From positions 4,768,001 to 4,832,000 of the forward strand of contig OZ241867.1 in NCBI GenBank assembly GCA_965203175.1: DNA of 64,000 bases, in the 5' to 3' direction. Shown here one piece after another: positions 25,784-39,138 of the stretch; positions within the stretch are counted from its first letter, which is position 1; each line of letters opens with the position of its first letter. Source of the stretch: Candidatus Latescibacterota bacterium (GTDB taxonomy: Bacteria; Latescibacterota; UBA2968; UBA8231). The notes beneath the pieces are model-generated. The model saw nothing but the letters and a program-made list of their open reading frames with translations, did not search any database and was not told where the DNA came from. Made by a program: the position numbers and the translations under genes.

Positions 25784-26689
25784 ATGAGCGAAACCCCCAT
25801 AAAAATCACCCCCCAACAACAGCGGCAGTTCGACGAAGACGGCTTCTTCCTCGTCGAAGACGCCCTGCCGCCCGACCGCATCGCCGCACTGTTGCAACGG
25901 CTCGACGAGTTGTACGACCGCTACCGCCAAGAGCGCAATCTCGATCCCCGCCAAGCCTTTCAGATGCGCAATATCGCCACCGATTCCCTCTTTAAGGAAT
26001 TGGTGGACTACCCCCCCATTTTGCCTCTAATTGTGGACCTGATGGGCTACAATATCCAGCTCCGCACGTCGCACCTCGACGTGCGCCCGCCACAGGATCC
26101 AGCCGACGGAGAGCACGAGTTAGGTGCCCCGGACAGTTTTTTCCCGTGGCACGCCGACGGTCCCGACTACGGCTGGGCCGCGGTCGATGGAGTGCTGCCG
26201 TTTATGGAGATGAAGGTCGGCTATTATTTAACCGACCTGACCCAACCTTTGAGCGGTGCCATTTGCGTTGTGCGCGGCAGCCATCGCCAATCGCCGTGGC
26301 TTAACGAGGATGCACGCCGCGTCGATCCCGCGCGCATCGTCGAAGTCAACGTCGATCCCGGCACCGCGCTGGTTTGGCGCACGGCCTTGTACCACTGCCT
26401 GACCCCCAATCTATCCGACCAACCGCGCAAGTGCCTGTACTACGGCTATCAGCACCGCTGGATCCGCCCCTCGGATTACGAGCACCAAGCCCCGGAAATT
26501 TTGGCCGGGTGCGACCCGGTGCGGCGTCAGCTCTTAGGCGAATTGGGCACCGGCAGTACGGCCTATGCTGGCGACGACCCCTTGGTGCTGCCAGTGTCGC
26601 GCTATTGGCGGCCCAAAGACGAGGATATCCCGCTCAAAGCTTGGGCGGAGAATTATCGGTCTAACTTAAAGGAGGAGACCGTCCCGTGA
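25784..26689 (+). CDS. PhyH family dioxygenase
   Basis: FDEDGF, WHAD, YLTD..GAICVVRGSH, LYHC. Confidence 0.9.
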   Translation: MSETPIKITPQQQRQFDEDGFFLVEDALPPDRIAALLQRLDELYDRYRQERNLDPRQAFQMRNIATDSLFKELVDYPPILPLIVDLMGYNIQLRTSHLDVRPPQDPADGEHELGAPDSFFPWHADGPDYGWAAVDGVLPFMEMKVGYYLTDLTQPLSGAICVVRGSHRQSPWLNEDARRVDPARIVEVNVDPGTALVWRTALYHCLTPNLSDQPRKCLYYGYQHRWIRPSDYEHQAPEILAGCDPVRRQLLGELGTGSTAYAGDDPLVLPVSRYWRPKDEDIPLKAWAENYRSNLKEETVP

Positions 26690-27480
26690 CCCAACAAACC
26701 CTGCGCCACCTCACCCCCGATCAAGTCGAACGCTTCTACCTCGACGGCTGCCTGACCGTCGAGGATGTGCTAACCCCCGATGAGGTCGCCTCTTTAGCAG
26801 CCCACACCGACCGCATCGCCACCGGCGAGTTGGAGCACATCCCCGACACCAGCATCCAGCTCGAACCCGTCTTCCGTCGCGGCGAAAAAGCCGTCACCGA
26901 TCAGGTGCTGGCCGTGCGCAAATTGTACAACATAGCGGTGTACGACGACGTAATGTGGGCCCACGTCACCCACCCCAAAATCGCCGACATCATCGCCGAC
27001 CTGCTCAGTACCGACGACATCAAGATGTACGGCGACCAGCTCTTTATGAAAGCGCCGCGCACGGGCTCGGCGCAGGGCTGGCACCAGGACTCGGCCTCTT
27101 GGCGCGACATTTTCCCCATGGACTTGGTCTCTGCCTGGACTGCCATTGACGCGGCCACCCGCGACAACGGCTGCCTCAACTTTGCCCCGGGCACCCACCG
27201 CTGGGGCATGTTGCGGGGCGAGCGCTTAGCTCCTTTTGTCGCCGATCTCGAAAGCGGCGGCTGGCCCATCCGGCCCGCTCCCCTGCGCGCCGGCAGCATC
27301 AGCTTCCACCACAGCCTAACGCTGCACCAGAGCAACGCCAATCTGACCGGCACGCGACGCCGGGGCTATGCCGTGCACTACATGCGCGCGACTTCCTGGC
27401 GCGACGAGGCAGTCACCGACGCGCCCAAGATGCCGCCCTTCAAGCAGGTGCGGGGTCGGTCTTTTCCTGGGAGGGTTTGA
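26686..27480 (+). CDS. PhyH family dioxygenase
   Basis: F..DG, KAP..G..WHQD, AWTAID....NGCL..PGTH, LH.S..N; GTGA overlap. Confidence 0.92.
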   Translation: MTQQTLRHLTPDQVERFYLDGCLTVEDVLTPDEVASLAAHTDRIATGELEHIPDTSIQLEPVFRRGEKAVTDQVLAVRKLYNIAVYDDVMWAHVTHPKIADIIADLLSTDDIKMYGDQLFMKAPRTGSAQGWHQDSASWRDIFPMDLVSAWTAIDAATRDNGCLNFAPGTHRWGMLRGERLAPFVADLESGGWPIRPAPLRAGSISFHHSLTLHQSNANLTGTRRRGYAVHYMRATSWRDEAVTDAPKMPPFKQVRGRSFPGRV

Positions 27481-27692: not shown

Positions 27693-29213
27693 ATGAACGG
27701 TCTAGCCACACAGGACGCACTTGAACTCGAAGTGGCTAATTTCGGGCCGATCGTCGAGGCCAAGATTGATTTGCGTCCGCTGACCGTATTCGTCGGGCCG
27801 AGCAACACGGGGAAATCCTATCTGGCGATCCTGATCTATGCGCTGCATCGGTTTTTTAGGGCAGGTCCCTACCCTATAGAACGGCCGGTTACAGGCCCAA
27901 TCTCTCAATTTCTAAAGGGCGAAGAGCCGTACTTCCACCTGCCCGGTGCCGAATTCGACCGCATCTTACAAGCATTACGAGAATGGGAAGTAGAAAACCA
28001 CGAGCGTGGTGCGGCTCTGTCGGCTCCGGTCGTGGACTTGGTGCTTCCGCTACTCCGAGACGTTGATGGTTTTAAAGAGGTGCTCGATGAGGAAATCACG
28101 AGGTGTTTCGGCGTAGATGGCACAAAGAATCTGATTCGCCATTCGGGCAGCAACAAGGCTGAGGTTACCTTGCAAAGCAGCGGATTGGGAGAAGGCGGCA
28201 ATACGGCACCGTTCAAATACGCCCTTGCGATGACGAGGACGGGACCTCAGCTAATCACCGTTATCCCCGAGGGGGCACCTTTGCGGGTCGAAGAATCGCC
28301 GGAAAGGTATGGTTACTCTTCGAGATTTCTTAGCTGGCGCGACGATATAGACAGGAAGCTGGGCGTGTGGGAAGTGTCGCAGGACCTTGCCAATTCCGTC
28401 CTTTCCTTCATCCTTGGCCCGATGAGCCGCCCTGCTCATTATCTCCCTGCTGATCGCACAGGCGTGATGCACGCTCATCGCGTGCTCCTCGGTTCCTTGC
28501 TCAACCGTGCCTCGCAATCTCGGCTTCGCCAAGATGATCCGCTGCCAGACCTTTCCGGCGTTGTCGCCGATTTTCTCAAGCAACTCATCGAATTGGGCGA
28601 TCTTGCGGGACGTCAGAGCAACAAAGCAGACGCTCTGGCCAAGCGCATTGAGCAAGCGATCCTCACAGGCTCGGTTCAAATCAAAACGTCGGCAATGGGC
28701 TATCCGCTGTTTTTCTATAAACCCGACGGATGGAAAAATTCTCTACCTCTGATGAACACCTCGTCGATGGTGTCGGAACTCGCGCCAGTGGTCTTGTATC
28801 TGCGCCATGTCGTTCAACCCGGCGAGACCCTGATCATCGAAGAACCAGAATCTCACCTGCATCCGGCCATGCAGGTCGAATTCATCCGCCAAATCGCGGC
28901 GCTCGTCAATGCAGGCGTCAGGGTGATCGTCACGACGCACAGCGAGTGGGTGCTGGAGGAACTCGCCAACATCGTACGGCGCTCCGAACTTCCCAAGGCT
29001 CGTCGCAAGGAGATACCTCGGGGTGATTTCGCACTGCCTTCTGACCAAGTGGGCGCATGGCTGTTCGAGCCGAAGCGCCGCCCCAAGGGATCGGTGGTGA
29101 GGGAAATTCGTCTCGACGATTCAGGGCTTTATCCATCCGAATTTGATGAAGTCGCACGCGTACTCCACAACGACTGGGCCGATATTTCTAGCTGGATCGG
29201 AGAAACCGAATGA
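27693..29213 (+). CDS. ABC-type ATPase of the AAA_15/AAA_21 (AbiEii/OLD-like) class, defence-associated
   Basis: NFGPI, GPSNTGKS Walker A, YLPADRTG, SSMVSEL signature, LIIEEPESHLHP Walker B, TTHS. Confidence 0.9.
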   Translation: MNGLATQDALELEVANFGPIVEAKIDLRPLTVFVGPSNTGKSYLAILIYALHRFFRAGPYPIERPVTGPISQFLKGEEPYFHLPGAEFDRILQALREWEVENHERGAALSAPVVDLVLPLLRDVDGFKEVLDEEITRCFGVDGTKNLIRHSGSNKAEVTLQSSGLGEGGNTAPFKYALAMTRTGPQLITVIPEGAPLRVEESPERYGYSSRFLSWRDDIDRKLGVWEVSQDLANSVLSFILGPMSRPAHYLPADRTGVMHAHRVLLGSLLNRASQSRLRQDDPLPDLSGVVADFLKQLIELGDLAGRQSNKADALAKRIEQAILTGSVQIKTSAMGYPLFFYKPDGWKNSLPLMNTSSMVSELAPVVLYLRHVVQPGETLIIEEPESHLHPAMQVEFIRQIAALVNAGVRVIVTTHSEWVLEELANIVRRSELPKARRKEIPRGDFALPSDQVGAWLFEPKRRPKGSVVREIRLDDSGLYPSEFDEVARVLHNDWADISSWIGETE

Positions 29214-29689
29214 CGGGATTGGTGGGAACGGTTCACGGGAAGGTTAATAATACGTGTATTGAAAACAGGGGTATTAAGAAGGAAGGGTGCTCGGTGTCGC
29301 TGAAAGATGCACCGCAACCACGCCTAATAATCGATTTCGATAAACCGGGATCGCCACTGGGTAAGAATCAGACACGCTGCGACTACCTGTTCGTCGCCGA
29401 GGATCCTAGCAAGTCCGGCTGGGTCGTGCCGCTGGAGTTGAAGAAAGGCCAATTGGACACCAGCGGAATCGTCCGACAGCTCAAAGCGGGAGCCCACGCT
29501 GCCTCACAGCTTGTGCCCAATACGATGGCTGTCAATTTCCGCCCTGTCGTGGCCTACGGTGGTGGTATCCATACGGCAGAACGGAACGCATTGAAGGCTA
29601 ATCGCAACAAGGTGCGGTTTCATGGAACTGCCGAGCCCGTCCGATTGATCAAATGCGGCGAGCAATTGACCAAGGCGCTCGGCGCATGA
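29210..29689 (+). CDS. Small putative PD-(D/E)XK-type nuclease, partner of the ATPase
   Basis: RCDYLFV...VPLELKKG...IVRQL motif; ATGA overlap with the ATPase. Confidence 0.6.
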   Translation: MTGLVGTVHGKVNNTCIENRGIKKEGCSVSLKDAPQPRLIIDFDKPGSPLGKNQTRCDYLFVAEDPSKSGWVVPLELKKGQLDTSGIVRQLKAGAHAASQLVPNTMAVNFRPVVAYGGGIHTAERNALKANRNKVRFHGTAEPVRLIKCGEQLTKALGA

Positions 29690-29749: not shown

Positions 29750-31927
29750 CTATCTCCGACGAGATGTGGCCACAGTCTCTTTGAGAAAGTCCTCCACCTC
29801 TTGTAGGCCTTTTTCTTTAGCTAATCTCAAGGGGGTTCTGCCACTATTATCTGGGGTGTTTACATCAGCACCCTTGTTCACTAAAAAACGCACCGCCTCT
29901 AAACGGCCCCACTCGGTGGCTTCCATCAAGGCCGTCTCGCCGTTATTAGTTTGGGCGTTTATATCAGCACCATTTTCTACCAAAAAGCGAACCTTCTCCA
30001 AATCGCCAACCCGCACAGCTTGTATTAAGACCGTCTCGCCGTTATTAGTTTGGGTGTTTAGATCGGCACCCTTACCCACCAAAAAGCGAACCACCTCTAT
30101 GCCAGGGGCGGCTTGCATCAGGGCCGTCCAACCGTATTTAGTTTGGGCGTTTATATCGGCACCGTTTTCTATCAAAAAGTGAACCTTCTCCAAATCGCCG
30201 ACCTGCACAGCTTTCATCAAGGCCGTCTCGCCGTTATTAGTTTGGGTATTTACATCAGCACCATTTTCTACCAAAAGGCGAACTAACTCCAAAGCACCAA
30301 TCCGCACGGCTTTTATCAAAGCCGACTCGCCGTTATTAGTTTGGGTATTTACATCAGCACCATTTTCTACCAAAAGGCGAACTAATTCCAAATCGCCGAC
30401 CCGCACGGCTTTTATCAAGGCCGACTCGCCGTTATTAGTTTGGGCGTTTACATCGGCACCGTTTTCTACCAAAAGGTGAACCAACTCCAAATCGCCCTTC
30501 CGAACCGCTTGCACCAAGACGGTCCAACCGCGTTCATCTTGGGCGTCTATCTCGGCACCCTCACCCACCAGAATGCGAACCACCTCTAAACGGTCCCACT
30601 TGACGGCCTCCATTAAGGCGGTCCAACCGCGTTCATCTTGGGTGTTTATCTCGGCACCTTCACCTACCAAAAAGCGAAATACTTCCAAAGCGCCGAGCCG
30701 AGCCGCCTCCATCAAGGCCGTCTTGCCGCTATTGTCTTGGGTGTTTAGTTCGGCACCATTTTCTACCAAAAAGCGAACCACCTCCAAAGCACCAATCCGC
30801 ACGGCTTTTATCAAGGCTGCCGCGCCATATTTGTCTTGAGCGTTTAGTTCGGCTCCGTTTTCTACCAAAAAGCGAACGACCTCCAAGTCGCCGACCCGCG
30901 CCGCTTGCATCAAGGCCGCCCTACCGTCATTAGTTCGGGCGTTTAGTTCGGCTCCGTTTTCTACCAAAAAGCGAACCATCTCTACGCTATTTGGGGCGGC
31001 TTGTATCAAGGCTGTTTCGCCGATATTAGTTCGGGCGTCTATCTCGGCACCCTGATTCACCAAAAAGCGAACCATCTCCAAATCATCGACCCTAGCCGCC
31101 ATCATCAAGACCGTCCAGCCGTATTTAGCTCGGGCGTTTAGCTCGGCACCGTTTTCTACCAAAAAGCGCACCATCTCCAAATCGTCCTCCCGCGCCGCTT
31201 GCATCAAGGCCGTCCAGCCATATTTAGTTCGGGCATTTATATTGGCACCCTCACCTACCAAAAAGCGCACCATCTCCAAATCGCCGCCTAAAACAGCCCA
31301 GTGCAAGGCCGTCTTGCCATCCTCAGTTCGGGCATTCGCTCCTGCTTTCGCCACCCAGCGTTCTACCAAAGAGCGCACAACCTCTACATGGGCAACCCCT
31401 ATCTCTGGGTCGCCGCCCCAGGAAGCCAAGTCCAAGGCTGTCCAGCCGTTTTTATCTTGGACGTTTATGTCAGCACCGTTGTCCATCAAAAAACGTACTA
31501 TCTCTACATCGCCTTCTCCGGCAGCTACCATCAAGGCTGTCCTGCCGCGACCAGTTTGGACGTTGATATCGGTGCCGTTATCCACCAAAAACTGCACCAT
31601 CTCTACATCGCCTTCCCTGGCAGCCACCATCAAGGCTGTCTCACCTTGGTCAGTCCGGACGTGGATAGCCATCCCTGCATCCATAAATAGCTGTACCGCG
31701 AACACATCCCCCTTTTCCACGCGCTCGAAGAAAGAAGACTGGGTATATTGAATTCCCCGCTCGCTGAGCTCGCTGCGAGCCTGCTCAAGGGTTCGGGGTT
31801 GGTAGGAGTCGTCAGTCGAATCCTGCTCGACGACCTTTTTGTCCCCTCTATCCTCACCCTCCACGACACTCACTAGCAATAGGCCAACTAGGCCGATCAC
31901 ACCTGTCACGCCTTTCCAGCTTTTCAT
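29750..31927 (-). CDS. Secreted ankyrin-repeat protein (roughly 19-20 repeats)
   Basis: Signal peptide; tandem 33-aa G.TALM.AA..GDLE.VRFLV.NGA.IN units; several near-identical 99-bp DNA units around 29.9-30.5 kb. Confidence 0.96.
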   Translation of the reverse strand: MKSWKGVTGVIGLVGLLLVSVVEGEDRGDKKVVEQDSTDDSYQPRTLEQARSELSERGIQYTQSSFFERVEKGDVFAVQLFMDAGMAIHVRTDQGETALMVAAREGDVEMVQFLVDNGTDINVQTGRGRTALMVAAGEGDVEIVRFLMDNGADINVQDKNGWTALDLASWGGDPEIGVAHVEVVRSLVERWVAKAGANARTEDGKTALHWAVLGGDLEMVRFLVGEGANINARTKYGWTALMQAAREDDLEMVRFLVENGAELNARAKYGWTVLMMAARVDDLEMVRFLVNQGAEIDARTNIGETALIQAAPNSVEMVRFLVENGAELNARTNDGRAALMQAARVGDLEVVRFLVENGAELNAQDKYGAAALIKAVRIGALEVVRFLVENGAELNTQDNSGKTALMEAARLGALEVFRFLVGEGAEINTQDERGWTALMEAVKWDRLEVVRILVGEGAEIDAQDERGWTVLVQAVRKGDLELVHLLVENGADVNAQTNNGESALIKAVRVGDLELVRLLVENGADVNTQTNNGESALIKAVRIGALELVRLLVENGADVNTQTNNGETALMKAVQVGDLEKVHFLIENGADINAQTKYGWTALMQAAPGIEVVRFLVGKGADLNTQTNNGETVLIQAVRVGDLEKVRFLVENGADINAQTNNGETALMEATEWGRLEAVRFLVNKGADVNTPDNSGRTPLRLAKEKGLQEVEDFLKETVATSRRR

Positions 31928-31941
31928 GCCGCCGTCTCCTC

Positions 31942-31987
31942 AACTACGACTTCGCCAAGCTGCTGGCGCGGGCCGAATCCCAACCTG
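31942..31987 (+). pseudogene. 3' remnant of SNF2/DUF3883 helicase gene
   Basis: Reads NYDFAKLLARAES, matching the ...SVNYDxxxLLARAE.P* terminus of helicases that precede DUF1156 MTases (recalled, not searched). Confidence 0.6.
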
Positions 31988-32492
31988 AGCAACTTGTATC
32001 TTGTCGTCCTGTGCAAAAAAGATACTCAACAACTGGCTGGTTTGCTCTTTATCAATCATGGTCCAAGGCTTGGACAAGGATGACTAGCGCGCTATCTTGG
32101 TCTTTCGAAGATAAAAAAGGATAGAATAGTATACGCAAGATCGCTAGCTGCGGAGGCGGCAAAGGCCAAGACAAGCTATCGCGGGAGATCAATTTTCGCT
32201 ATTTTTTTACGGGTGCCGATTACGAGGGCTTGCATCTGAGCCGAGGGGGAGACCGGTCGGATGAATTGATGGCGCATATATAGCGAGATTCGCCAACACC
32301 TCGATAACGGCTAGTCTCTGCACTACAGTGCTTGGGAGAGGCTTACGGCGAAACCGTGACGGTGCAGGAACATATCATGAATCAACCGACAGCATGAGCA
32401 GCGCGGACAAGCACAACCTTGGCGAGTAAGCGAGGACTATATTCAATTCGGAAGTCTAGCGGACAGGCTGTAGAGCAAGAAAAGGAGAAATC

Positions 32493-33293
32493 ATGGCGAA
32501 GCCGTTCCTTCGTTGGGCAGGCAGCAAGCGTCAGATAGTAAAGAGGCTATCCGAGTATTGGCCCGGAGGAAACACGCGGTATATCGAGCCGTTCGCGGGT
32601 TCCGCGTGTCTCTTCTTCGAGTTGGAACCTCGCTCTGCCCTTATCGGAGATATTAACTCTGAACTGATCGAGATGTACGAGGTAGTCCGAGAACGTCCCT
32701 ACGATCTTCACGAGTCTTTGAGTCGTTGGAATAACGATCAAAACGAGTACTATCGTGTACGAAGCATGAAATCCTCGATACTAAACAATGTCGATCGAGC
32801 AGCTCGTTTCATATATCTCAACAGATTTTGTTTCAATGGTTTATATCGAACCAATGGAAGTGGCCACTTCAATGTGCCTTATGGAGGAGGCAAGTCCGGA
32901 TCAATTCCTTCAATAGAAGTATTAAATGAAGCAAGTAGAGTTTTGGCTAATTCTCGATTGATTTCTGGAGACTTTGAAGAAATTTTAAGAGATGCAAAAA
33001 AAAATGATTTTATATATTTAGATCCGCCATTTTCTATGGTAGACAGGAGATCTTTTACCGAATATGCACCTGAATCCTTTAGAGAAAAAGACTTGATTCG
33101 GCTACGAGAGACAATTCACTATCTCGACAAACTTGGTGCTGTATTTCTTTTGAGTTATGCTGACTGTGATGAGGGAAAACGGCTTGCCAAAGGTTTTCCG
33201 ACTTATCGAGTAGAAATCAAAAGAAATATTGCCGGATTTCCTAGCAGCCGAAGATCGGTGACTGAACTCATCGCGACGAATGCCGCTATCTAA
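32493..33293 (+). CDS. Dam-family (D12 class) N6-adenine DNA methyltransferase
   Basis: PFLRWAGSK, YIEPFAGS, RFIYLNRFCFNGLYRTN..GHFNVPYG, FIYLDPPF; AAGGAG RBS; AT-rich. Confidence 0.93.
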   Translation: MAKPFLRWAGSKRQIVKRLSEYWPGGNTRYIEPFAGSACLFFELEPRSALIGDINSELIEMYEVVRERPYDLHESLSRWNNDQNEYYRVRSMKSSILNNVDRAARFIYLNRFCFNGLYRTNGSGHFNVPYGGGKSGSIPSIEVLNEASRVLANSRLISGDFEEILRDAKKNDFIYLDPPFSMVDRRSFTEYAPESFREKDLIRLRETIHYLDKLGAVFLLSYADCDEGKRLAKGFPTYRVEIKRNIAGFPSSRRSVTELIATNAAI

Positions 33294-33307
33294 GTGAGGG
33301 AGTTTCA

Positions 33308-34324
33308 ATGAGCGAAGAGAGAAGCAATCATGAAGGTGTCTCAGTGATTCCGAAAGGAGAACTGATTTACCTCGGTGTTGATGAACTCCGCCCAAGTCCG
33401 CACAATCCGCGTAAGCTCTTTGATCCTGAACCGCTTGCAGCACTCAAAAAAAGTATCCAAGAGCATGGAGTACTTGTCCCACTGACTGTCTATTCTCAGC
33501 CTGGTCAGGATATATACGCGATTGTAGACGGAGAGCGCCGTTACAAATGTTGCTCCGACCTCTGCAAGGAAGGAGTCGATATAAGAATTCCAGCAAATGT
33601 TGTCGCTCCTCCCGATCCGATGGCATCCCTAATATATATGTTTAATATCCACCAGTTCCGGCAACAATGGGAACTGATGCCGACTGCACTTGCTCTGAAA
33701 GCTGTTATAGAAGAATTGGAAATAGATGACCAGCAGGAATTGACCGAACTAACTGGACTTAGCGATCCTCAAGTCGAGCGCTGCAAAATTATTCTTTCGT
33801 TTCCTGATCGATATCAAGAGCTGTCAATGGAGCATGATCCACAGGCAAGAATACCATCTAATTTCTGGGTCGAGCTTTATCCTGTATTGGAACTTGTGGA
33901 GAATCTATTACCTGGTCTAATAAAAGAGGAAGGGCGTGACGGAGTTACCGACCGTCTGATCGATAAATATCGTGATAAGCGAATCAAGAGTGTCATTCAT
34001 TTCAGGCGTATACTAGAGGCATATGATGTGCAAGAAAATAAGGAGGGTGTAGAGGTCGTAGCAGACAAATTGAGAGAGTATATTTTGAGCCCGGAGATGG
34101 AGACGCGGGATACATTCGATGGATTCATTCTCGACTCAAGACGAGTCCAGAAAGCTACTCAGGCTGCAGACAGGTTCCTTAATGATCTACAAAAGGCGAA
34201 GATCGATCATGCAATAGATTATAAAGATGAGCTAATTCAAAAACTTATGAATGTACGTCAATTTGTTGATGATCTCTTAGCTAAGCTTGAAGGTGAAGAT
34301 GCACCACAAGAGGAGGATGCTTGA
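33308..34324 (+). CDS. ParB/Srx N-terminal domain protein
   Basis: LRPSPHNPRKLFD..L..LKKSIQEHGVLVPLTV...YAIVDGERRY; HTH-like middle; no adjacent ParA. Confidence 0.88.
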   Translation: MSEERSNHEGVSVIPKGELIYLGVDELRPSPHNPRKLFDPEPLAALKKSIQEHGVLVPLTVYSQPGQDIYAIVDGERRYKCCSDLCKEGVDIRIPANVVAPPDPMASLIYMFNIHQFRQQWELMPTALALKAVIEELEIDDQQELTELTGLSDPQVERCKIILSFPDRYQELSMEHDPQARIPSNFWVELYPVLELVENLLPGLIKEEGRDGVTDRLIDKYRDKRIKSVIHFRRILEAYDVQENKEGVEVVADKLREYILSPEMETRDTFDGFILDSRRVQKATQAADRFLNDLQKAKIDHAIDYKDELIQKLMNVRQFVDDLLAKLEGEDAPQEEDA

Positions 34325-35142
34325 TTCTACTTAGAGCAGTCTCTTATGTCCGAGCAGCTTGGCGACTTCGGAGATACGAACCTAAAAAGGTTACCTTAAG
34401 GAGCTTGATCGAATGGACTCGACAGTTTCCAAAAGACTATCGAACTGATTTAATTCGACTAGTTGCGAACCTAAGGTTTATCTCAGAAAAAGAGACTATA
34501 GGGTACCTTGTTGATTTAAATCAGAAGGTTCTTTGTGCCTTACAAAAAGATGGTATAGATATCCGTAACGTCATATATGTTTCAACCAGCACAGCGGGAA
34601 GTAGCAGTAGTGTTATGTTAAGCCTACTGCGCGATCATGCAAATCTCGAACAACGAGGAGCAACGTTGCTGCACTATGGTGAAGCAATGAAGATTCAGCG
34701 ATATACTAGGAAACTCAAACGTGGTGCAATCGTGTATGTCGATGACTTCGCGGGAACGGGAAAGCAGTTCATTCGATCACGTCGAGACGTAGCAGAATAC
34801 GTTGTCGGTGTATTCTCGGAGTTCTTCTTGCTCCCATGTATCTGTGAAGAGGCACAGTCAAAAATCGAAGCTGCCGGCATAAAACCGCTGAGTGGGTTTA
34901 TTCATAAAAAATCCGAACGTCCGTTTCTTGATAATTGTGCCTTTCTAAAGCCAAAACAGCGCAAAAGACTTTTGATGTTGTCCCACAAGTATTGGAATGA
35001 GAAAATCGCCCTCGGTTTTAGTGGTTTGGCAACCAATGTTGTCTTTTATCGTACCACACCAAATACGACGCCACTAATTTTTCGGGGGAAACGTGGTCAG
35101 GCACCTGTCTTCGGAGTTATTCCTAGGTACGACGACCAGTAG
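34321..35142 (+). CDS. Phosphoribosyltransferase-like protein (conflict-system type PRTase)
   Basis: AGSSSS loop, IVYVDDFAGTGKQF PRPP-binding motif, C-terminal LGF...VVF...PNTT..IF...W/F...PR pattern; TTGA overlap with ParB gene. Confidence 0.8.
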   Translation: MILLRAVSYVRAAWRLRRYEPKKVTLRSLIEWTRQFPKDYRTDLIRLVANLRFISEKETIGYLVDLNQKVLCALQKDGIDIRNVIYVSTSTAGSSSSVMLSLLRDHANLEQRGATLLHYGEAMKIQRYTRKLKRGAIVYVDDFAGTGKQFIRSRRDVAEYVVGVFSEFFLLPCICEEAQSKIEAAGIKPLSGFIHKKSERPFLDNCAFLKPKQRKRLLMLSHKYWNEKIALGFSGLATNVVFYRTTPNTTPLIFRGKRGQAPVFGVIPRYDDQ

Positions 35143-35178
35143 ACTTGCCCAGATAATACCACGTAAGTATGCGTTTTT

Positions 35179-35301
35179 AAAGACCTCATCGAAGTCACCC
35201 TGCCACTCGATGCGACCAACGCCATGTTGGCACGAGAGAAGTAGATTCTTCGACACGGACATCCGAGCACGCTGTATCTGTGATGGGCACGGTGGTCGTT
35301 G
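35179..35301 (+). pseudogene. Decayed 5' part of DUF1156-family methyltransferase
   Basis: One frame reads [39 protein letters not shown], versus the family start [40 protein letters not shown]; two in-frame stops. Confidence 0.88.
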
Positions 35302-35447
35302 GATTCTATACGAGCGGCGATTTAGGAGTTTTTCCAAGGCTTGGGCCAAATAACTGTCGTCCTATCTTGATCTTTAGTCGTCCAAAAATCGGCACGTGGA
35401 CAGAGCACTAGGCACCACCAACTCGGCCAACCCAAAGGAGCAAAGAC

Positions 35448-36317
35448 GTGGACAAATACCTCTATACGGTCTCAGAAGAAGAAAAATACTACTTCGACCT
35501 GCGCGGCTACCTAGTCGTCCGCAACGCCCTCACCGCCGAGGAAGTAAGCGAGTGCAACGCCGCCATCGACCACTTCGCCGACCAGATCTCTGCTTATCCC
35601 GGCACCCTCGCCCGCGGCTCAAGCGCGCTGCAAGGCACGACCAGCCGCCAGCAGCTCACCGGCATGCTCGGTTGGCCGTCCCCCTACCGCGAACCCTTTC
35701 GCCGCCTGCTGGTCCATCCCACCATCGTCTCTCGCCTCAACGAATTCAGCGGCCCGGGCTTTCGTCTCGATCACGGCCCCCTACTCATCAGCGCCACTGA
35801 GGGCACCGAAGGGCACTACCTACACGGCGCAGGCGAGCCCTTTAGCCCCGCCACTTGGTATCACCAGCAAAACGGCAAAATCTACTGCCGGGGCATCACC
35901 GTGGCTTGGCAACTGACCGACTGCAACCCCGGCGACGGCGGCTTTGCCGTGATCCCCGGAAGCCACAAAACCTGCGAGCCGACCCCGCCCGAGATCCGCT
36001 CGCTCGCAGAGTACGGAGAATTGGTCGTCCAACCCGCCATGCGCGCCGGCGACGTCCTCTTCTTCGCCGAGACCGCCACCCACGGCACGCTGCCGTGGAA
36101 GGGCAAGACGCAGCGGCGCTCCGTGCTCTACAAATACGCCTCCCGGGGCGCGGCCCGAGCTACGGGCAAATACTTCACTCCACAGGCGCGCTACGGCGCT
36201 TGGATCGACGAACTCACGCCCGAACAACAAGCCGTCCTGTACGGACCAGGCGTCCACCACAAGGACCTGCCCCTGCTGGAATCCGACGGCCAAAAAACTT
36301 GGATTGCGGAGGGCTAA
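35448..36317 (+). CDS. PhyH family dioxygenase
   Basis: FDLRGYLVV, LHG, WQLTD..PGDGGF.VIPGSHK, AGDVLFF.E...HGT.PW. Confidence 0.9.
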   Translation: MDKYLYTVSEEEKYYFDLRGYLVVRNALTAEEVSECNAAIDHFADQISAYPGTLARGSSALQGTTSRQQLTGMLGWPSPYREPFRRLLVHPTIVSRLNEFSGPGFRLDHGPLLISATEGTEGHYLHGAGEPFSPATWYHQQNGKIYCRGITVAWQLTDCNPGDGGFAVIPGSHKTCEPTPPEIRSLAEYGELVVQPAMRAGDVLFFAETATHGTLPWKGKTQRRSVLYKYASRGAARATGKYFTPQARYGAWIDELTPEQQAVLYGPGVHHKDLPLLESDGQKTWIAEG

Positions 36318-36318
36318 A

Positions 36319-37182
36319 ATGGATGCGCGCGAATGCTATTTCTGGGATCTCACCGGCTATCTGATCGTCCGCAATGTCCTCACCGCCGAGGAATTAAGCG
36401 AATGCAATGCCGCTATCGATCACTGCATGGACCAGATGCAGCAAAGCCCCGACAATGGCGGTGCCCGAGGAGAGTCTAACGCGCTTCAAGGCACTGGCCA
36501 ACAGACCCTCCCCAACCTGCTCGAATTGCCCCATCCCCACTGTGAACCCTTCCGCCGCCTGCTGGTGCATCCCCAAGTCGTCTGCCGCCTCAACGCAATG
36601 TGCGGCAAAGGCTTCCGCCACGACCACGGACCCTGGGTCTCCTACAGTCCCAAGGGAACCGAGGGCCTCATCCTGCACGGGGCGGGCGAACCCCACAGAC
36701 CCTACGTGGCCTACCACCACCAGAACGGCCAGTTCTACTGCGCTGGCGTCACCGTGACCTGGCAGTTAGCCGACTGCAAGGCCGGCGATGGTGGTTTTGC
36801 CTGCGTGCCGGGCAGCCACAAAGCCAAATTCCCCATGCCTGCCGGCGTGCGCTCCTGCGACGAGCCACTGGACGTGGTCCACCAGCCCGCGCTCAAAGCC
36901 GGCGATGTCATCTTCTTTATGGACGGGGCCCAGACCCACGGCACCCTACCCTGGAAAGGCGAAGCGCCGCGCCGCTCTGCACTCTACAAGTACGCGAGCC
37001 GCACGGCCACCCGCTCTGGCGTCTCCATCGAGTTAGCCGAACCGGAAGTCTATTGGGACGAGGCTATCGTAGAGGGTATGACACCCGAGCAACGCGCCGT
37101 CATGTACGGCCCCTGTTCCAGTATCTCCCAGAAGCTACATTTGCAGGTGGAGGCCGACGGCAACGTTGTGCTCGTCAAGTAA
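36319..37182 (+). CDS. PhyH family dioxygenase, tandem paralog of 35448-36317
   Basis: Shares GYL.VRN.LTAEE.SECNAAIDH, EPFRRLLVHP, LHGAGEP, HQ..NG, PGSHK, HGTLPWKG, LYKYASR. Confidence 0.9.
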   Translation: MDARECYFWDLTGYLIVRNVLTAEELSECNAAIDHCMDQMQQSPDNGGARGESNALQGTGQQTLPNLLELPHPHCEPFRRLLVHPQVVCRLNAMCGKGFRHDHGPWVSYSPKGTEGLILHGAGEPHRPYVAYHHQNGQFYCAGVTVTWQLADCKAGDGGFACVPGSHKAKFPMPAGVRSCDEPLDVVHQPALKAGDVIFFMDGAQTHGTLPWKGEAPRRSALYKYASRTATRSGVSIELAEPEVYWDEAIVEGMTPEQRAVMYGPCSSISQKLHLQVEADGNVVLVK

Positions 37183-37991: not shown

Positions 37992-38786
37992 TTAAGAAAC
38001 CGTCTGCAAACTCCACTGCTCGCACCCGGCAAAAGGCATGTGCTCCCCCTCGACGTACTGCGGCCGCGGCGCGTACTTATTCCCTACATCGGGCATCACG
38101 TCACCCCGGCACATAATGCACGGACTGCGATCCACAGTGACTCTGGTGCTGGTCGGAATGTAGCGCAGGGTAAGCCCGACCCGCCATTGATCCGAAGTGT
38201 TGGTATTGGACCCGTGAATGATACTGGGGTGGTGGATGGAAATATCCCCCGCCTCCAGTTCTAGATCAACGGCATCAGCGTCGTCGATCTGGTCGGGATG
38301 GATGCCGACGCCAAGGACGTACTTATCCCTATCGAGATCGACCATCTCGCTGCGCTTGAGCAGGCGCTTGGTATGCGTCCCCGGCAAAACCCGCATACAG
38401 CCATTGGCCACCGTCGAGTCCGTGCCGGCCACCCATAACGTGGTGACTTCCATCGGCTCCAAAGGCCAGTACGAGCCGTCCTGATGCCACTGCACGGCTT
38501 GGCCGGTACTGGGTTTTTTGGCGATATAATGCGCCGCAAACATGGCCACATTGGGCCCGAGGAATTGCGCGGCAATATCGACCAACCGGTCGTCGGTGAC
38601 TAGGCGGTGCATAAAGGGATCATTCACCATTAGTTCGTGGTGCAATTGCTCGGGGCGCGTGCCCGGATTCTTTTTAACTAACCAGTGTACGTGCTCCACG
38701 GTCTCAGCGGCTAGCTCCGCATCAATGGCCTTGCGGGCAATGCAAAAGCCCTGCTCGTCGTATGCTTGGCGCAGTGTTGTTTCCAT
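37992..38786 (-). CDS. PhyH family dioxygenase
   Basis: Start METTLR at 38786; K.P..G..V.WHQD..YW, NGCMRVLPGTH, IIHGS..NTS..R. Confidence 0.92.
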   Translation of the reverse strand: METTLRQAYDEQGFCIARKAIDAELAAETVEHVHWLVKKNPGTRPEQLHHELMVNDPFMHRLVTDDRLVDIAAQFLGPNVAMFAAHYIAKKPSTGQAVQWHQDGSYWPLEPMEVTTLWVAGTDSTVANGCMRVLPGTHTKRLLKRSEMVDLDRDKYVLGVGIHPDQIDDADAVDLELEAGDISIHHPSIIHGSNTNTSDQWRVGLTLRYIPTSTRVTVDRSPCIMCRGDVMPDVGNKYAPRPQYVEGEHMPFAGCEQWSLQTVS

Positions 38787-38802
38787 TCGCTCTCTTGCCC
38801 TC

Positions 38803-39138
38803 CTAGGCTCGCCACGCCGGATGGGTAACATGCAGCAAATAGGCCCGTTTCGGCACGGTGATAATCGTCTGCGTACCCTTCTCAATATAACCCAAGTCAC
38901 CTACCTCGTACTGCACCGGCTCCTGATCCGCGACTTGGATCTCCAAGTGCCCCTCCAACATGAAAAAGACCTCGTCGTAATCAAAGGTCCACACCAACCG
39001 GCTGGCCTCTAGATACTCGGTAAAACCGGCCGACAGTTTGTTGCCGACGCCAACAATGGGATCGGAAACCTGCACCGTGGCACCGGGCACGTCAAAAGCG
39101 GCTAAATTTCTCTGGTCCTTCTCGACTTTATAGATCAT
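38803..39138 (-). CDS. Cupin (EutQ-like) protein
   Basis: LSAGF, WT.DYDEVFFMLEG.L, GD..YI.KG, V.HP.W. Confidence 0.8.
   Translation of the reverse strand: MIYKVEKDQRNLAAFDVPGATVQVSDPIVGVGNKLSAGFTEYLEASRLVWTFDYDEVFFMLEGHLEIQVADQEPVQYEVGDLGYIEKGTQTIITVPKRAYLLHVTHPAWRA

Follow-up and report, generated by a model that had tools for sequence, protein, structure and literature searches.

Within a 64,000-nt stretch of the genome of a Candidatus Latescibacterota bacterium (positions 4,768,001 to 4,832,000 of contig OZ241867.1, assembly GCA_965203175.1; this whole stretch is called the window, and its coordinates are used throughout), three adjacent genes encode a Dam-family methyltransferase, a protein of the ParB/Noc/KorB class and a phosphoribosyltransferase (PRTase) of the PRTase-CE family (Table 1). 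This Dam-ParB-PRTase trio is a conserved, horizontally mobile three-gene unit. We propose, giving the idea roughly even chances, that it operates as a nuclease-free, methylation-gated abortive-infection module, similar in layout to a restriction-modification (RM) system.

Organization of the trio

A previous sequence-only reading of the window had described three same-strand open reading frames (ORFs), clearly more AT-rich than their flanks, the first two separated by a 14-bp gap and the last two joined by a TTGA overlap. The coordinates of all three ORFs were reproduced exactly, each on the forward strand. Specifically, the Dam stop codon TAA occupies positions 33291-33293 and the ParB ATG begins at 33308, with the sequence GAGGGAG in the gap between them, while the ParB stop and the TTG start of the PRTase gene share positions 34321-34324. 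This overlap is preceded by GAGGAGGA, and a ribosome-binding-site-like AAGGAG lies upstream of the Dam ATG. The difference in composition was found as described, with a GC fraction of 0.38-0.47 for the trio versus 0.58-0.66 for the flanking genes. In addition, the DPPF, DGERR and VDDFAGTG motifs are present in the translations and occupy alignment columns that are invariant, or nearly so, within the families. The absence of both a nuclease gene and a ParA gene, also claimed previously, holds for the 3.2-kb insert in which the trio resides, since this codes for the three genes only.

Conservation and spread of the trio

All genomic context scans were seeded with the PRTase, in the form of an alignment, and the linkage counts are conditional on it. 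The scan of one genome per species returned 29 loci, to which a metagenome scan added 80 and a viral-contig scan one. In 17 of the 29 genome loci (L002-L017 and L019), the Dam, ParB and PRTase genes are found in identical order and strand; of the others, L018 is truncated at a contig end, L020 and L025 show fragmented matches to all three genes, and the remainder carry distant PRTase-CE genes belonging to other systems. A search for the same three-gene synteny across genomes had been suggested by the sequence-only reading. Considering the loci whose PRTase reaches an identity of 35%, counted without deduplication (L012, L068 and L111 are one 9,863-nt contig), 62 were testable by virtue of having at least 1,950 nt upstream of the PRTase: 59 carry both Dam and ParB, two ParB only (L036 and L040) and one neither (L094, where the PRTase itself is N-terminally truncated). 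ParB was also present in 10 of 10 loci with 1,000-1,949 nt upstream; the 27 loci with less than 1,000 nt are too short to judge.

Among 56 distinct cassettes, the window included, 52 yield single full-length matches to all three genes, covering at least 85% of each query. When the ORFs of at least 90 aa from 30 sources were clustered all against all, the only conserved families were these three, the flanks varying from locus to locus, and 4-nt stop/start overlaps are common among the trio loci. Pairwise distances correlate among the three proteins (Spearman 0.56-0.68, a value reached by none of 999 Mantel permutations), in agreement with joint inheritance. A maximum-likelihood tree of the concatenated trio (16 rows, leaving out the frameshifted L009 and L014, the cut L018 and the decayed L020 and L025) mixes at least nine phylum labels, namely Acidobacteriota, Gemmatimonadota, Nitrospirota, Pseudomonadota, Parcubacteria, Cloacimonadota, Spirochaetota, Rhodothermota and Latescibacterota; in it the window pairs with a Latescibacterota metagenome-assembled genome (MAG), with support 100/99. 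The genome-derived trio loci are MAG records (Acidobacteriota, Gemmatimonadota, Latescibacterota, Parcubacteria and others), and the family belongs almost entirely to uncultivated environmental bacteria, which would explain why E. coli-centred screens missed it.

Some loci depart from this arrangement. The order in L085 is ParB-PRTase-Dam, and L028, on a distant branch (ParB 35% identical), combines ParB and PRTase-CE genes with a convergent D12 methylase. L026 (L026:2243-7685) encodes a 670-aa protein whose C-terminal half carries a ParB domain; the place of the PRTase, of which a fragment remains, is taken by an IS66 transposase, followed by a 455-aa D12 methylase. In L036 (L036:2-1467), the place of Dam is held by two ORFs without a Pfam family, one of 282 aa and one of 206 aa that runs off the contig end, the ParB protein has an N-terminal extension of about 60 aa, and a second tblastn match to ParB lies upstream. 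Finally, one protein among at least 120 (P0163, 500 aa) appeared to be a Dam-ParB fusion. About the first 40 residues of P0163 show no resemblance to Dam, of which the C-terminal half alone is in frame; P0031, the PRTase on a contig with the same length as that of P0163 (9,988 nt), has an aberrant C-terminus. We regard the P0163 locus as probably a decayed or misassembled copy and not as Rosetta-stone evidence.

The methylase

The first protein of the trio matches PF02086 (MethyltransfD12; E 6.9e-48) in Pfam and the TIGR00571 dam model of NCBIfam (229.6 bits versus a cut-off of 114.85), and its closest solved structures are those of DpnII methylase 1, DpnM (2dpm, 9.1e-51), and of E. coli Dam (2g1p, 2e-27). 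Its best matches in PADLOC are to MTase_II (3e-76) and to the orphan MTase model (2.2e-63), in addition to a mad2 match at E 0.03, the sole mad match in the trio. No other protein encoded in the 6.58-Mb genome matches PF02086. Throughout 17 family members, the S-adenosylmethionine (SAM) motif EPFAGS (E32, P33, F34 and G36) and the catalytic D177 and P178 are invariant and P179 nearly so, and the catalytic DPP[FY] is conserved in the methylase family.

With respect to target recognition, K9, Y119, N120, L122, R124 and P134 of E. coli Dam, which we take to be the GATC-contacting residues of the Dam-DNA structures, align with R7, F114, N115, L117, R119 and P129 of the trio protein, all of them invariant or nearly so. 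DpnM likewise methylates GATC. Because the contact role of the aligned residues is an assumption of ours, we infer GATC specificity for the trio Dam as probable.

The ParB-class protein

The second protein is a genuine member of the ParB/Noc/KorB class, composed of a ParB N-domain and a helix-turn-helix (HTH). It matches PF02195 (ParB_N; E 1.1e-12) in Pfam, and residues 19-173 align with Spo0J of B. subtilis (6sdk) at 1.6e-15 when a family profile built from 18 members is used. Its AlphaFold model, with a predicted local distance difference test (pLDDT) value of 82 and a predicted template-modelling (pTM) score of 0.70, retrieved ParB, Noc and KorB structures in Foldseek at E values of about 1e-8. 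The GERR motif is kept, R77 and R78 being invariant and E76 being replaced in two of the 18 members; box III reads FNIHQFR rather than ENLQR. The HTH residues T149, G150, L151, R158 and C159 are invariant across phyla and are among the most conserved parts of the protein. ParB-fold proteins are increasingly seen as versatile nucleoside triphosphate (NTP) switches, and on the strength of these sequence features we propose that the trio ParB may be an NTP-binding DNA clamp.

The model shows long helices from about residue 176 to residue 338, which constitute a family-specific C-terminal half; for this region the best score in the ESM Atlas was 0.84, with none at 0.9 or above. The protein matches no meaningful model of PADLOC v2.0.0. 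The host encodes a separate chromosomal ParB of 293 aa, and neither the insert nor the conserved neighbourhood of any trio locus includes a ParA gene.

The PRTase-CE protein

The third protein matches PF24390 (PRTase-CE) with an E value of 1.5e-24 and 87.7 bits versus a cut-off of 27, covering positions 3-245 of the 253 of the profile, and the same family is carried by all of at least 120 relatives. It also matches the retron model PRTase_III-A of PADLOC (6.2e-20). The structural model (pLDDT 93.1) shows a type I PRTase fold, for which Foldseek retrieved OPRT and HGPRT structures, and the best VIA-align match was the UPRT structure 1vst (Z 13.2, root-mean-square deviation 3.0, 141 residues), PRTase-fold proteins occupying nearly all of the top 39 rows. 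In the VDDFAGTGKQ loop, D141, D142, G147 and Q149 are invariant in 44 sequences. Comparison of the profile with PDB sequences gave only chance-level matches to KaiC (E 0.018 or above). By tblastn at 1e-5, the PRTase matched none of 72,556 plasmid records and none of 50,697 phage records, and the viral-contig scan returned a single relative, L111.

What is known of this family comes mainly from retrons. According to PMC12746101, the PRTase effector of Retron-Eco11 (type III-A3) is toxic when triggered by phage helicases, and its activation goes with abortive infection and with a fall of about 50% in phosphoribosyl pyrophosphate (PRPP) as the only significant metabolite change. The same text describes the toxicity of Ec86 as apparently triggered by a phage Dcm that modifies the multicopy single-stranded DNA (msDNA), so that the methylation state of DNA can gate a retron effector. 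In our scans, the partner of the PRTase-CE protein was a winged HTH (wHTH), an ORC/Cdc6-like protein or a ParB, always a DNA-binding module. These data suggest that PRTase-CE is a recurrent output of small operons with DNA-binding, NTP-using parts, two of which include a methylase. By analogy with the retron proteins, membership of the PRTase-CE family supports the reading of the trio PRTase as a putative effector.

The trio lies in a recently imported insert

Import was assessed by comparing a 17-kb query with 25 genomes of the same genus. Both flanks match congeners at 86-94%, and positions 32106-35332 are unmatched among the strongest matches, which are those listed (271 weaker ones exist besides). 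The insert is bounded by an imperfect 44-nt direct repeat, whose left and right copies are identical at 34 of 44 bases in the BLAST alignment, the right copy having a 1-nt gap. At the empty sites of three congeners (G010, G011 and G021), a single 44-nt copy was found, corresponding to the overlap of the left and right flank alignments. Among 41 genomes searched (40 relatives), the trio-type ParB is confined to the source genome, the ParB matches of the other relatives being their own chromosomal proteins of about 293-305 aa.

Public runs, for which contigs only were compared, give the same picture. One metagenome run contains empty-site contigs joining 32105 to 35433/35436, at depths of 80.9 and 16, together with insert-bearing contigs at a depth of about 2, so that the empty site is the deeper one. 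Two further runs contain contigs with an insert about 95% identical at the same position, spanning a junction. Therefore, since contigs with and without it both exist, the insert is a presence/absence polymorphism within the genus, and the copy in the window is a recent import. No recombinase is encoded in the insert, which holds the three genes only.

The sequence-only reading had placed the trio between a helicase 3' remnant and a DUF1156 5' remnant. The latter was recovered as a PF06634 match (E 5.7e-7, 30 bits versus a cut-off of 24, with stops read as X). Positions 35143-35332 have 79% and 75% nucleotide identity to two places 3' of the trio in L002, the closest relative, which points to import from a donor with a DUF1156-type gene after the trio. 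Thus, the DUF1156 piece arrived with the insert and does not place the trio inside a decayed host system. Its in-frame stops, at 35242-35244 and about 35281-35283, fall at Ser and Trp positions of the profile (EK-stop-ILRHGHPSTLYL-stop-WARW) and look like point decay of an imported fragment, not like recoding. In L002 itself, DUF1156 5' sequence occurs twice (L002:6828-6933 and L002:9544-9664), flanking a PD-T4-4_A-like gene, as if this gene had inserted with duplication.

The helicase remnant, on the other hand, could not be recovered: in seven stop-to-stop frames of 47-63 aa across 31892-32426, no helicase family was matched in Pfam at E values up to 10. Neither tblastx nor blastn matched the leader of the insert (32106-32492) to any of the loci retrieved. 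No Rfam match was found at E up to 1 across 31900-35500, although Rfam need not contain every retron non-coding RNA (ncRNA). A promoter-like site lies at 32071-32098, just outside the leader; such sites, like those resembling terminators, do not exceed the frequency seen in shuffled sequences. Within 31900-35500, the repeat search returned short two-copy families only, the gapped 44-nt repeat having come from BLAST, and a degenerate pattern for that repeat matched the left copy alone, owing to the 1-nt gap in the right one. As regards expression, no RNA run was found among the 12 public runs listed as containing part of the window.

Table 1. Positions of the trio, the insert and the genes to its left in the window
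Feature	Position	Strand	Remarks
D12 methyltransferase (Dam-family)	32493-33293	+	266-aa ORF
ParB/Noc/KorB-class protein	33308-34324	+	338-aa ORF
PRTase-CE protein	34321-35142	+	273-aa ORF, TTG start, 4-nt overlap with ParB
Imported insert (leader, trio, DUF1156 piece)	32106-35332	+	3,227 nt; no congener match among the matches listed, low GC
Left copy of imperfect 44-nt direct repeat	32062-32105		Congener flank homology stops at 32105
Right copy of imperfect 44-nt direct repeat	35333-35376		Congener flank homology restarts at 35333
Insert leader (claimed helicase remnant)	32106-32492	+	387 nt, no Pfam or Rfam family, no similar locus
DUF1156-type 5' remnant	35167-35322	+	PF06634 match; in-frame TAG and TGA
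AAA_15/AAA_21 ATPase	27693-29213	+	506 aa
Partner of the ATPase	29210-29689	+	159 aa, 4-nt overlap with the ATPase
Ankyrin-repeat protein	29750-31927	-	725 aa

A proposed mechanism for the trio

In the mechanism that we propose, the Dam methylase would mark resident DNA, probably at GATC, and the ParB-class protein, as an NTP-binding clamp with a conserved HTH, would read DNA. Once activated, the PRTase-CE protein would consume PRPP or otherwise disturb nucleotide metabolism, and the cell, or the replication of an invader, would be arrested. ParB may keep the PRTase in a complex and activate it on DNA without the methyl mark of the cassette. If true, the trio would be a compact and portable defence-type module of new architecture, in which methylation self-marking is coupled to a metabolic abortive-infection effector replacing the nuclease, with a ParB clamp as the DNA reader.

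A ParB-PRTase complex is plausible because the two genes appear translationally coupled. Structure prediction of the pair gave a score of 0.44, the best of three controls reaching 0.00, with runs agreeing in at least 74% of contacts and a partner pLDDT of at least 87. The mark applied is passed by 116 of 157 solved complexes and by two of 215 mismatched pairs; passes with scores of 0.60 or under comprise 18 of the 157 solved complexes and both of the mismatches. We take the prediction as weakly supporting the complex.

Several points weigh against the proposed mechanism, the weakness of this pass being one of them. Box I of the ParB protein reads HNPRK, with Asn instead of the canonical Gln in 18 of 18 members, so that its NTPase cycle may differ from the canonical one; the box I Gln and the GERR residues are taken to have a catalytic role, for which we draw only on PDB entries whose titles name Q52A and E93A mutants. 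As regards a binding site, over the 250 nt preceding the 56 cassettes neither 6-8-mers nor inverted repeats rise above shuffles, and the best shared perfect palindrome of 10-16 nt occurs in five of the 56, at a coding position, none with GATC recurring; such searches would miss degenerate or distant parS sites. A k-mer run that included 30 coding bases returned the codons of WAGSK only. GATC itself is neither avoided nor enriched in the 56 cassettes (observed/expected ratio 1.03). With no conserved site and an unbiased GATC frequency, nothing indicates what ParB reads. In addition, ParB and PRTase genes that look intact are found in L036 and L040, where the vicinity lacks a D12 methylase; lethality of the pair with no Dam beside it is therefore not obvious, unless a Dam is encoded elsewhere in those genomes. 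Many of the genes flanking the trio are ordinary metabolic or housekeeping genes, which makes the defence-island context only partial. Lastly, the available part of PMC12746101 reports no identified acceptor for the Retron-Eco11 PRTase, and PRPP depletion as the killing mechanism is itself unsettled.

Alternative explanations

Everything observed would also be compatible with a selfish addiction module, an 'epigenetic toxin-antitoxin' in which loss of Dam would dilute methylation and a longer-lived ParB-PRTase would arrest the cell, with no primary anti-phage role. The three genes move as a compact unit without a dedicated mobility gene, their spread across phyla is patchy, they are polymorphic for presence or absence at the genus level, the empty site prevailing in one run, and in several decayed copies (L020, L025 and L014) all genes are broken together. 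However, addiction is compatible with defence and not an exclusive alternative to it: type II RM systems, which are known for post-segregational killing, also act in defence. Moreover, L040 and L036 retain ParB and PRTase without a neighbouring Dam, and plasmids, where addiction modules are usually common, gave no match; we consider addiction rather unlikely as the primary role. A different role for the same parts would be DNA hypermodification, with ParB bringing the PRTase to DNA, PRPP serving to attach a phosphoribosyl group to a base or to swap one base for another, Dam giving the first mark or the sites, and the product protecting the DNA, similar to the way in which the ParB-like DpdB assists DpdA in the Dpd system. 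ParB-like partners of DNA-modifying enzymes are on record, with the Dpd system in PMC10164549 and the ParB-dependent T-dioxygenases of phages in PMC13229309; the constant DNA-binding neighbour of PRTase-CE and the retron PRTase acceptor, described as not identified in what is available of PMC12746101, would fit as well. Hypermodification is nonetheless quite unlikely in our opinion, since PRTase-CE is a toxic abortive-infection effector in the retrons of that same source, none of the loci links the trio to a nuclease or another reader of a new mark, and the phage records, where hypermodification genes are typically found, hold no match.

Related chemistry could also serve as a weapon. In this variant, ParB would load on DNA without N6-methyladenine, the PRTase-CE protein would transfer the phosphoribose of PRPP to a base, and N6-methyladenine would protect self, an adduct chemistry that by analogy would be DarT-like but PRPP-dependent. 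The idea is a long shot, yet it would explain why PRTase-CE constantly has a DNA-binding partner (a wHTH with msDNA, an ORC/Cdc6-like protein or ParB), as well as the NADAR glycohydrolase beside the distant PRTase toxin DS-32, and, if true, the trio would be the first immune system with a ParB-type clamp sensor and the first with DNA phosphoribosylation as a weapon. The three genes might, at the other extreme, be unrelated housekeeping genes of a mobile element, with ParB in partition or regulation, Dam in anti-restriction and the PRTase in salvage, and with no joint mechanism. ParB-methylase fusions are indeed described as common in phages and plasmids in the available part of one report (10.1101/2025.10.10.680097), L111 is filed in a viral contig collection, and the trio adjoins a relaxase gene in L008 and, in L011, a resolvase gene. 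Against this, there is no ParA in any locus, there are no conserved neighbours, and no cis palindrome was found as a candidate parS; the PRTase is unmatched in the plasmid and phage collections, and it belongs to a conflict-effector family, not to a salvage enzyme family. The sole viral-contig relative, L111, is in fact the Nitrospirota MAG contig L012, four other tested ORFs of which have no Pfam family. A set of unrelated genes is, in our judgement, highly improbable.

Genomic neighbourhood

The insertion point in the window is intergenic, between the ankyrin-repeat gene and a gene of the PhyH (phytanoyl-CoA dioxygenase) family, and five PhyH paralogues surround this variable spot (25784-27480, 35448-37182 and 37992-38900). 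The 725-aa protein consists nearly entirely of ankyrin repeats, with a hydrophobic N-terminus, and matches the candidate model PDC-M72A of PADLOC at 1.8e-135; several congeners share it and paralogues are present elsewhere in the genome. Further to the left, the 506-aa ATPase matches PD-T4-4_A of PADLOC at 5.9e-37 and its 159-aa partner matches PDC-M47B weakly, at 5.5e-4. The pair is found at 85-88% DNA identity in some congeners, and a homologue of the ATPase, from the same ORF cluster, lies directly 3' of the trio in L002.

Host genes beside the insert are therefore similar to known or candidate defence genes in PADLOC. The trio of L002 sits among genes similar to PD-Lambda-2_B, HEC-09 and PD-T4-4_A in PADLOC. 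Neighbours in other loci include MmeI, a NACHT NTPase, a Mrr-methylase fusion, SNF2 and ResIII helicases, a PIN protein, a resolvase and a relaxase.

Comparison with known systems

The trio shares with type III-A retrons, such as Retron-Eco11, a PRTase-CE effector coupled to a DNA-binding module. Unlike them, it has no reverse transcriptase (RT), an RVT_1 neighbour being absent from every trio locus and present in L021, no Rfam-detectable ncRNA and no wHTH fused to its PRTase, ParB and Dam being found instead. Four loci of our scans, L021-L024, are such type III-A retrons, of flavobacterial and Chitinophagaceae origin, in which the PRTase-CE is fused to a 'wHTH-PRTase associated' domain and adjoined by an RVT_1 gene; in L021 (L021:1065-8443), where the PRTase-CE protein has 427 aa, the retron genes lie directly 3' of the DUF3584 (1,234 aa) and DUF7281 genes.

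A second group, the PRTase-CE/ORC-CDC6-like operons (L027, L029 and L030), resembles the trio in combining an NTPase with PRTase-CE and, in L027 and L030, a methylase-like gene. Specifically, L027:5560-10468 comprises the PRTase-CE gene, an ORC-CDC6-like ATPase (PF24389), a CARF6-like gene (PADLOC 1.4e-114) and the methylase-like gene (MTase_II 2.9e-15 and mad2 6.2e-15 in PADLOC); L030:6263-10546 shares its ATPase and last two gene clusters, and L029:2014-5820 has the first three genes only. In these operons, the PRTase-CE gene comes first, followed by the DNA-binding NTPase. They differ from the trio in that the NTPase is an AAA+ ATPase of PF24389, a family found in no trio locus, in the extra CARF6-like gene and in a methylase that is not of the D12 type. 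Since the ORC-type operon also has a methylase, PRTase-CE recurs beside a DNA-binding NTPase and a methylase.

Like type II RM systems and orphan Dam methylases, the trio has a D12 methylase with intact SAM and catalytic motifs, is mobile and patchy, and probably marks self DNA. It departs from type II RM systems in that no endonuclease gene is present in any trio locus and that the conserved partners are ParB and PRTase. With the ParB/Noc/KorB CTP-dependent clamps it shares the N-domain and HTH fold, the GERR motif and the best structural matches; in contrast to these, the trio ParB has no ParA and no parS-like palindrome was found, and it is set apart by the box I Asn, the box III FNIHQFR and its own helical C-terminal half. 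BREX, DISARM and MADS also join a methylase to NTPase or DNA-binding parts without a classical restriction enzyme, and the Dnd and Dpd systems contain the ParB-like proteins DndB and DpdB. The signature genes of these five systems are absent from the trio, and neither its ParB nor its PRTase gives any such match in PADLOC.

Two small defence operons with PRTase toxins have been described in sources available in part, namely ShosTA, in which ShosT accompanies a DprA-like partner (PMC11961720), and DS-32, where the PRTase is paired with a NADAR protein (10.1101/2025.01.08.631726). No ShosT model matches the trio, and the partners differ. For DS-32, the trio PRTase reaches 24.3 bits against the DS32_1 NCBIfam cut-off of 250, and a NADAR gene is absent from the trio, whose PRTase thus belongs to neither of these two families.

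The sequence-only reading had presented the trio as a candidate new three-part system, which stands as far as it concerns a conserved mobile unit with a candidate effector PRTase, now backed by PF24390, and does not as far as the helicase-remnant context is concerned. As to the PADLOC comparison that it had suggested, the trio corresponds to no catalogued system in v2.0.0, being matched only via generic methylase and retron-PRTase models. Full-text searches of the literature gave no description of a Dam-ParB-PRTase unit, supplementary tables and most subscription journals lying outside this coverage; the PRTase domains treated in PMC5512222 are those found in polyvalent proteins of phages and plasmids and do not concern the trio, and neither 'PRTase' nor 'phosphoribosyl' occurs in a survey of the ParB-CTPase fold. 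Database names of trio relatives are 'hypothetical protein' or the generic 'ParB family partition protein'. In conclusion, compared with these systems, the trio offers a three-protein, RT-free setting in which the acceptor and the trigger of PRTase-CE effectors could be found, and we rate as its novel part the ParB-class partner, which is unprecedented, the PRTase-CE effector family being already known.

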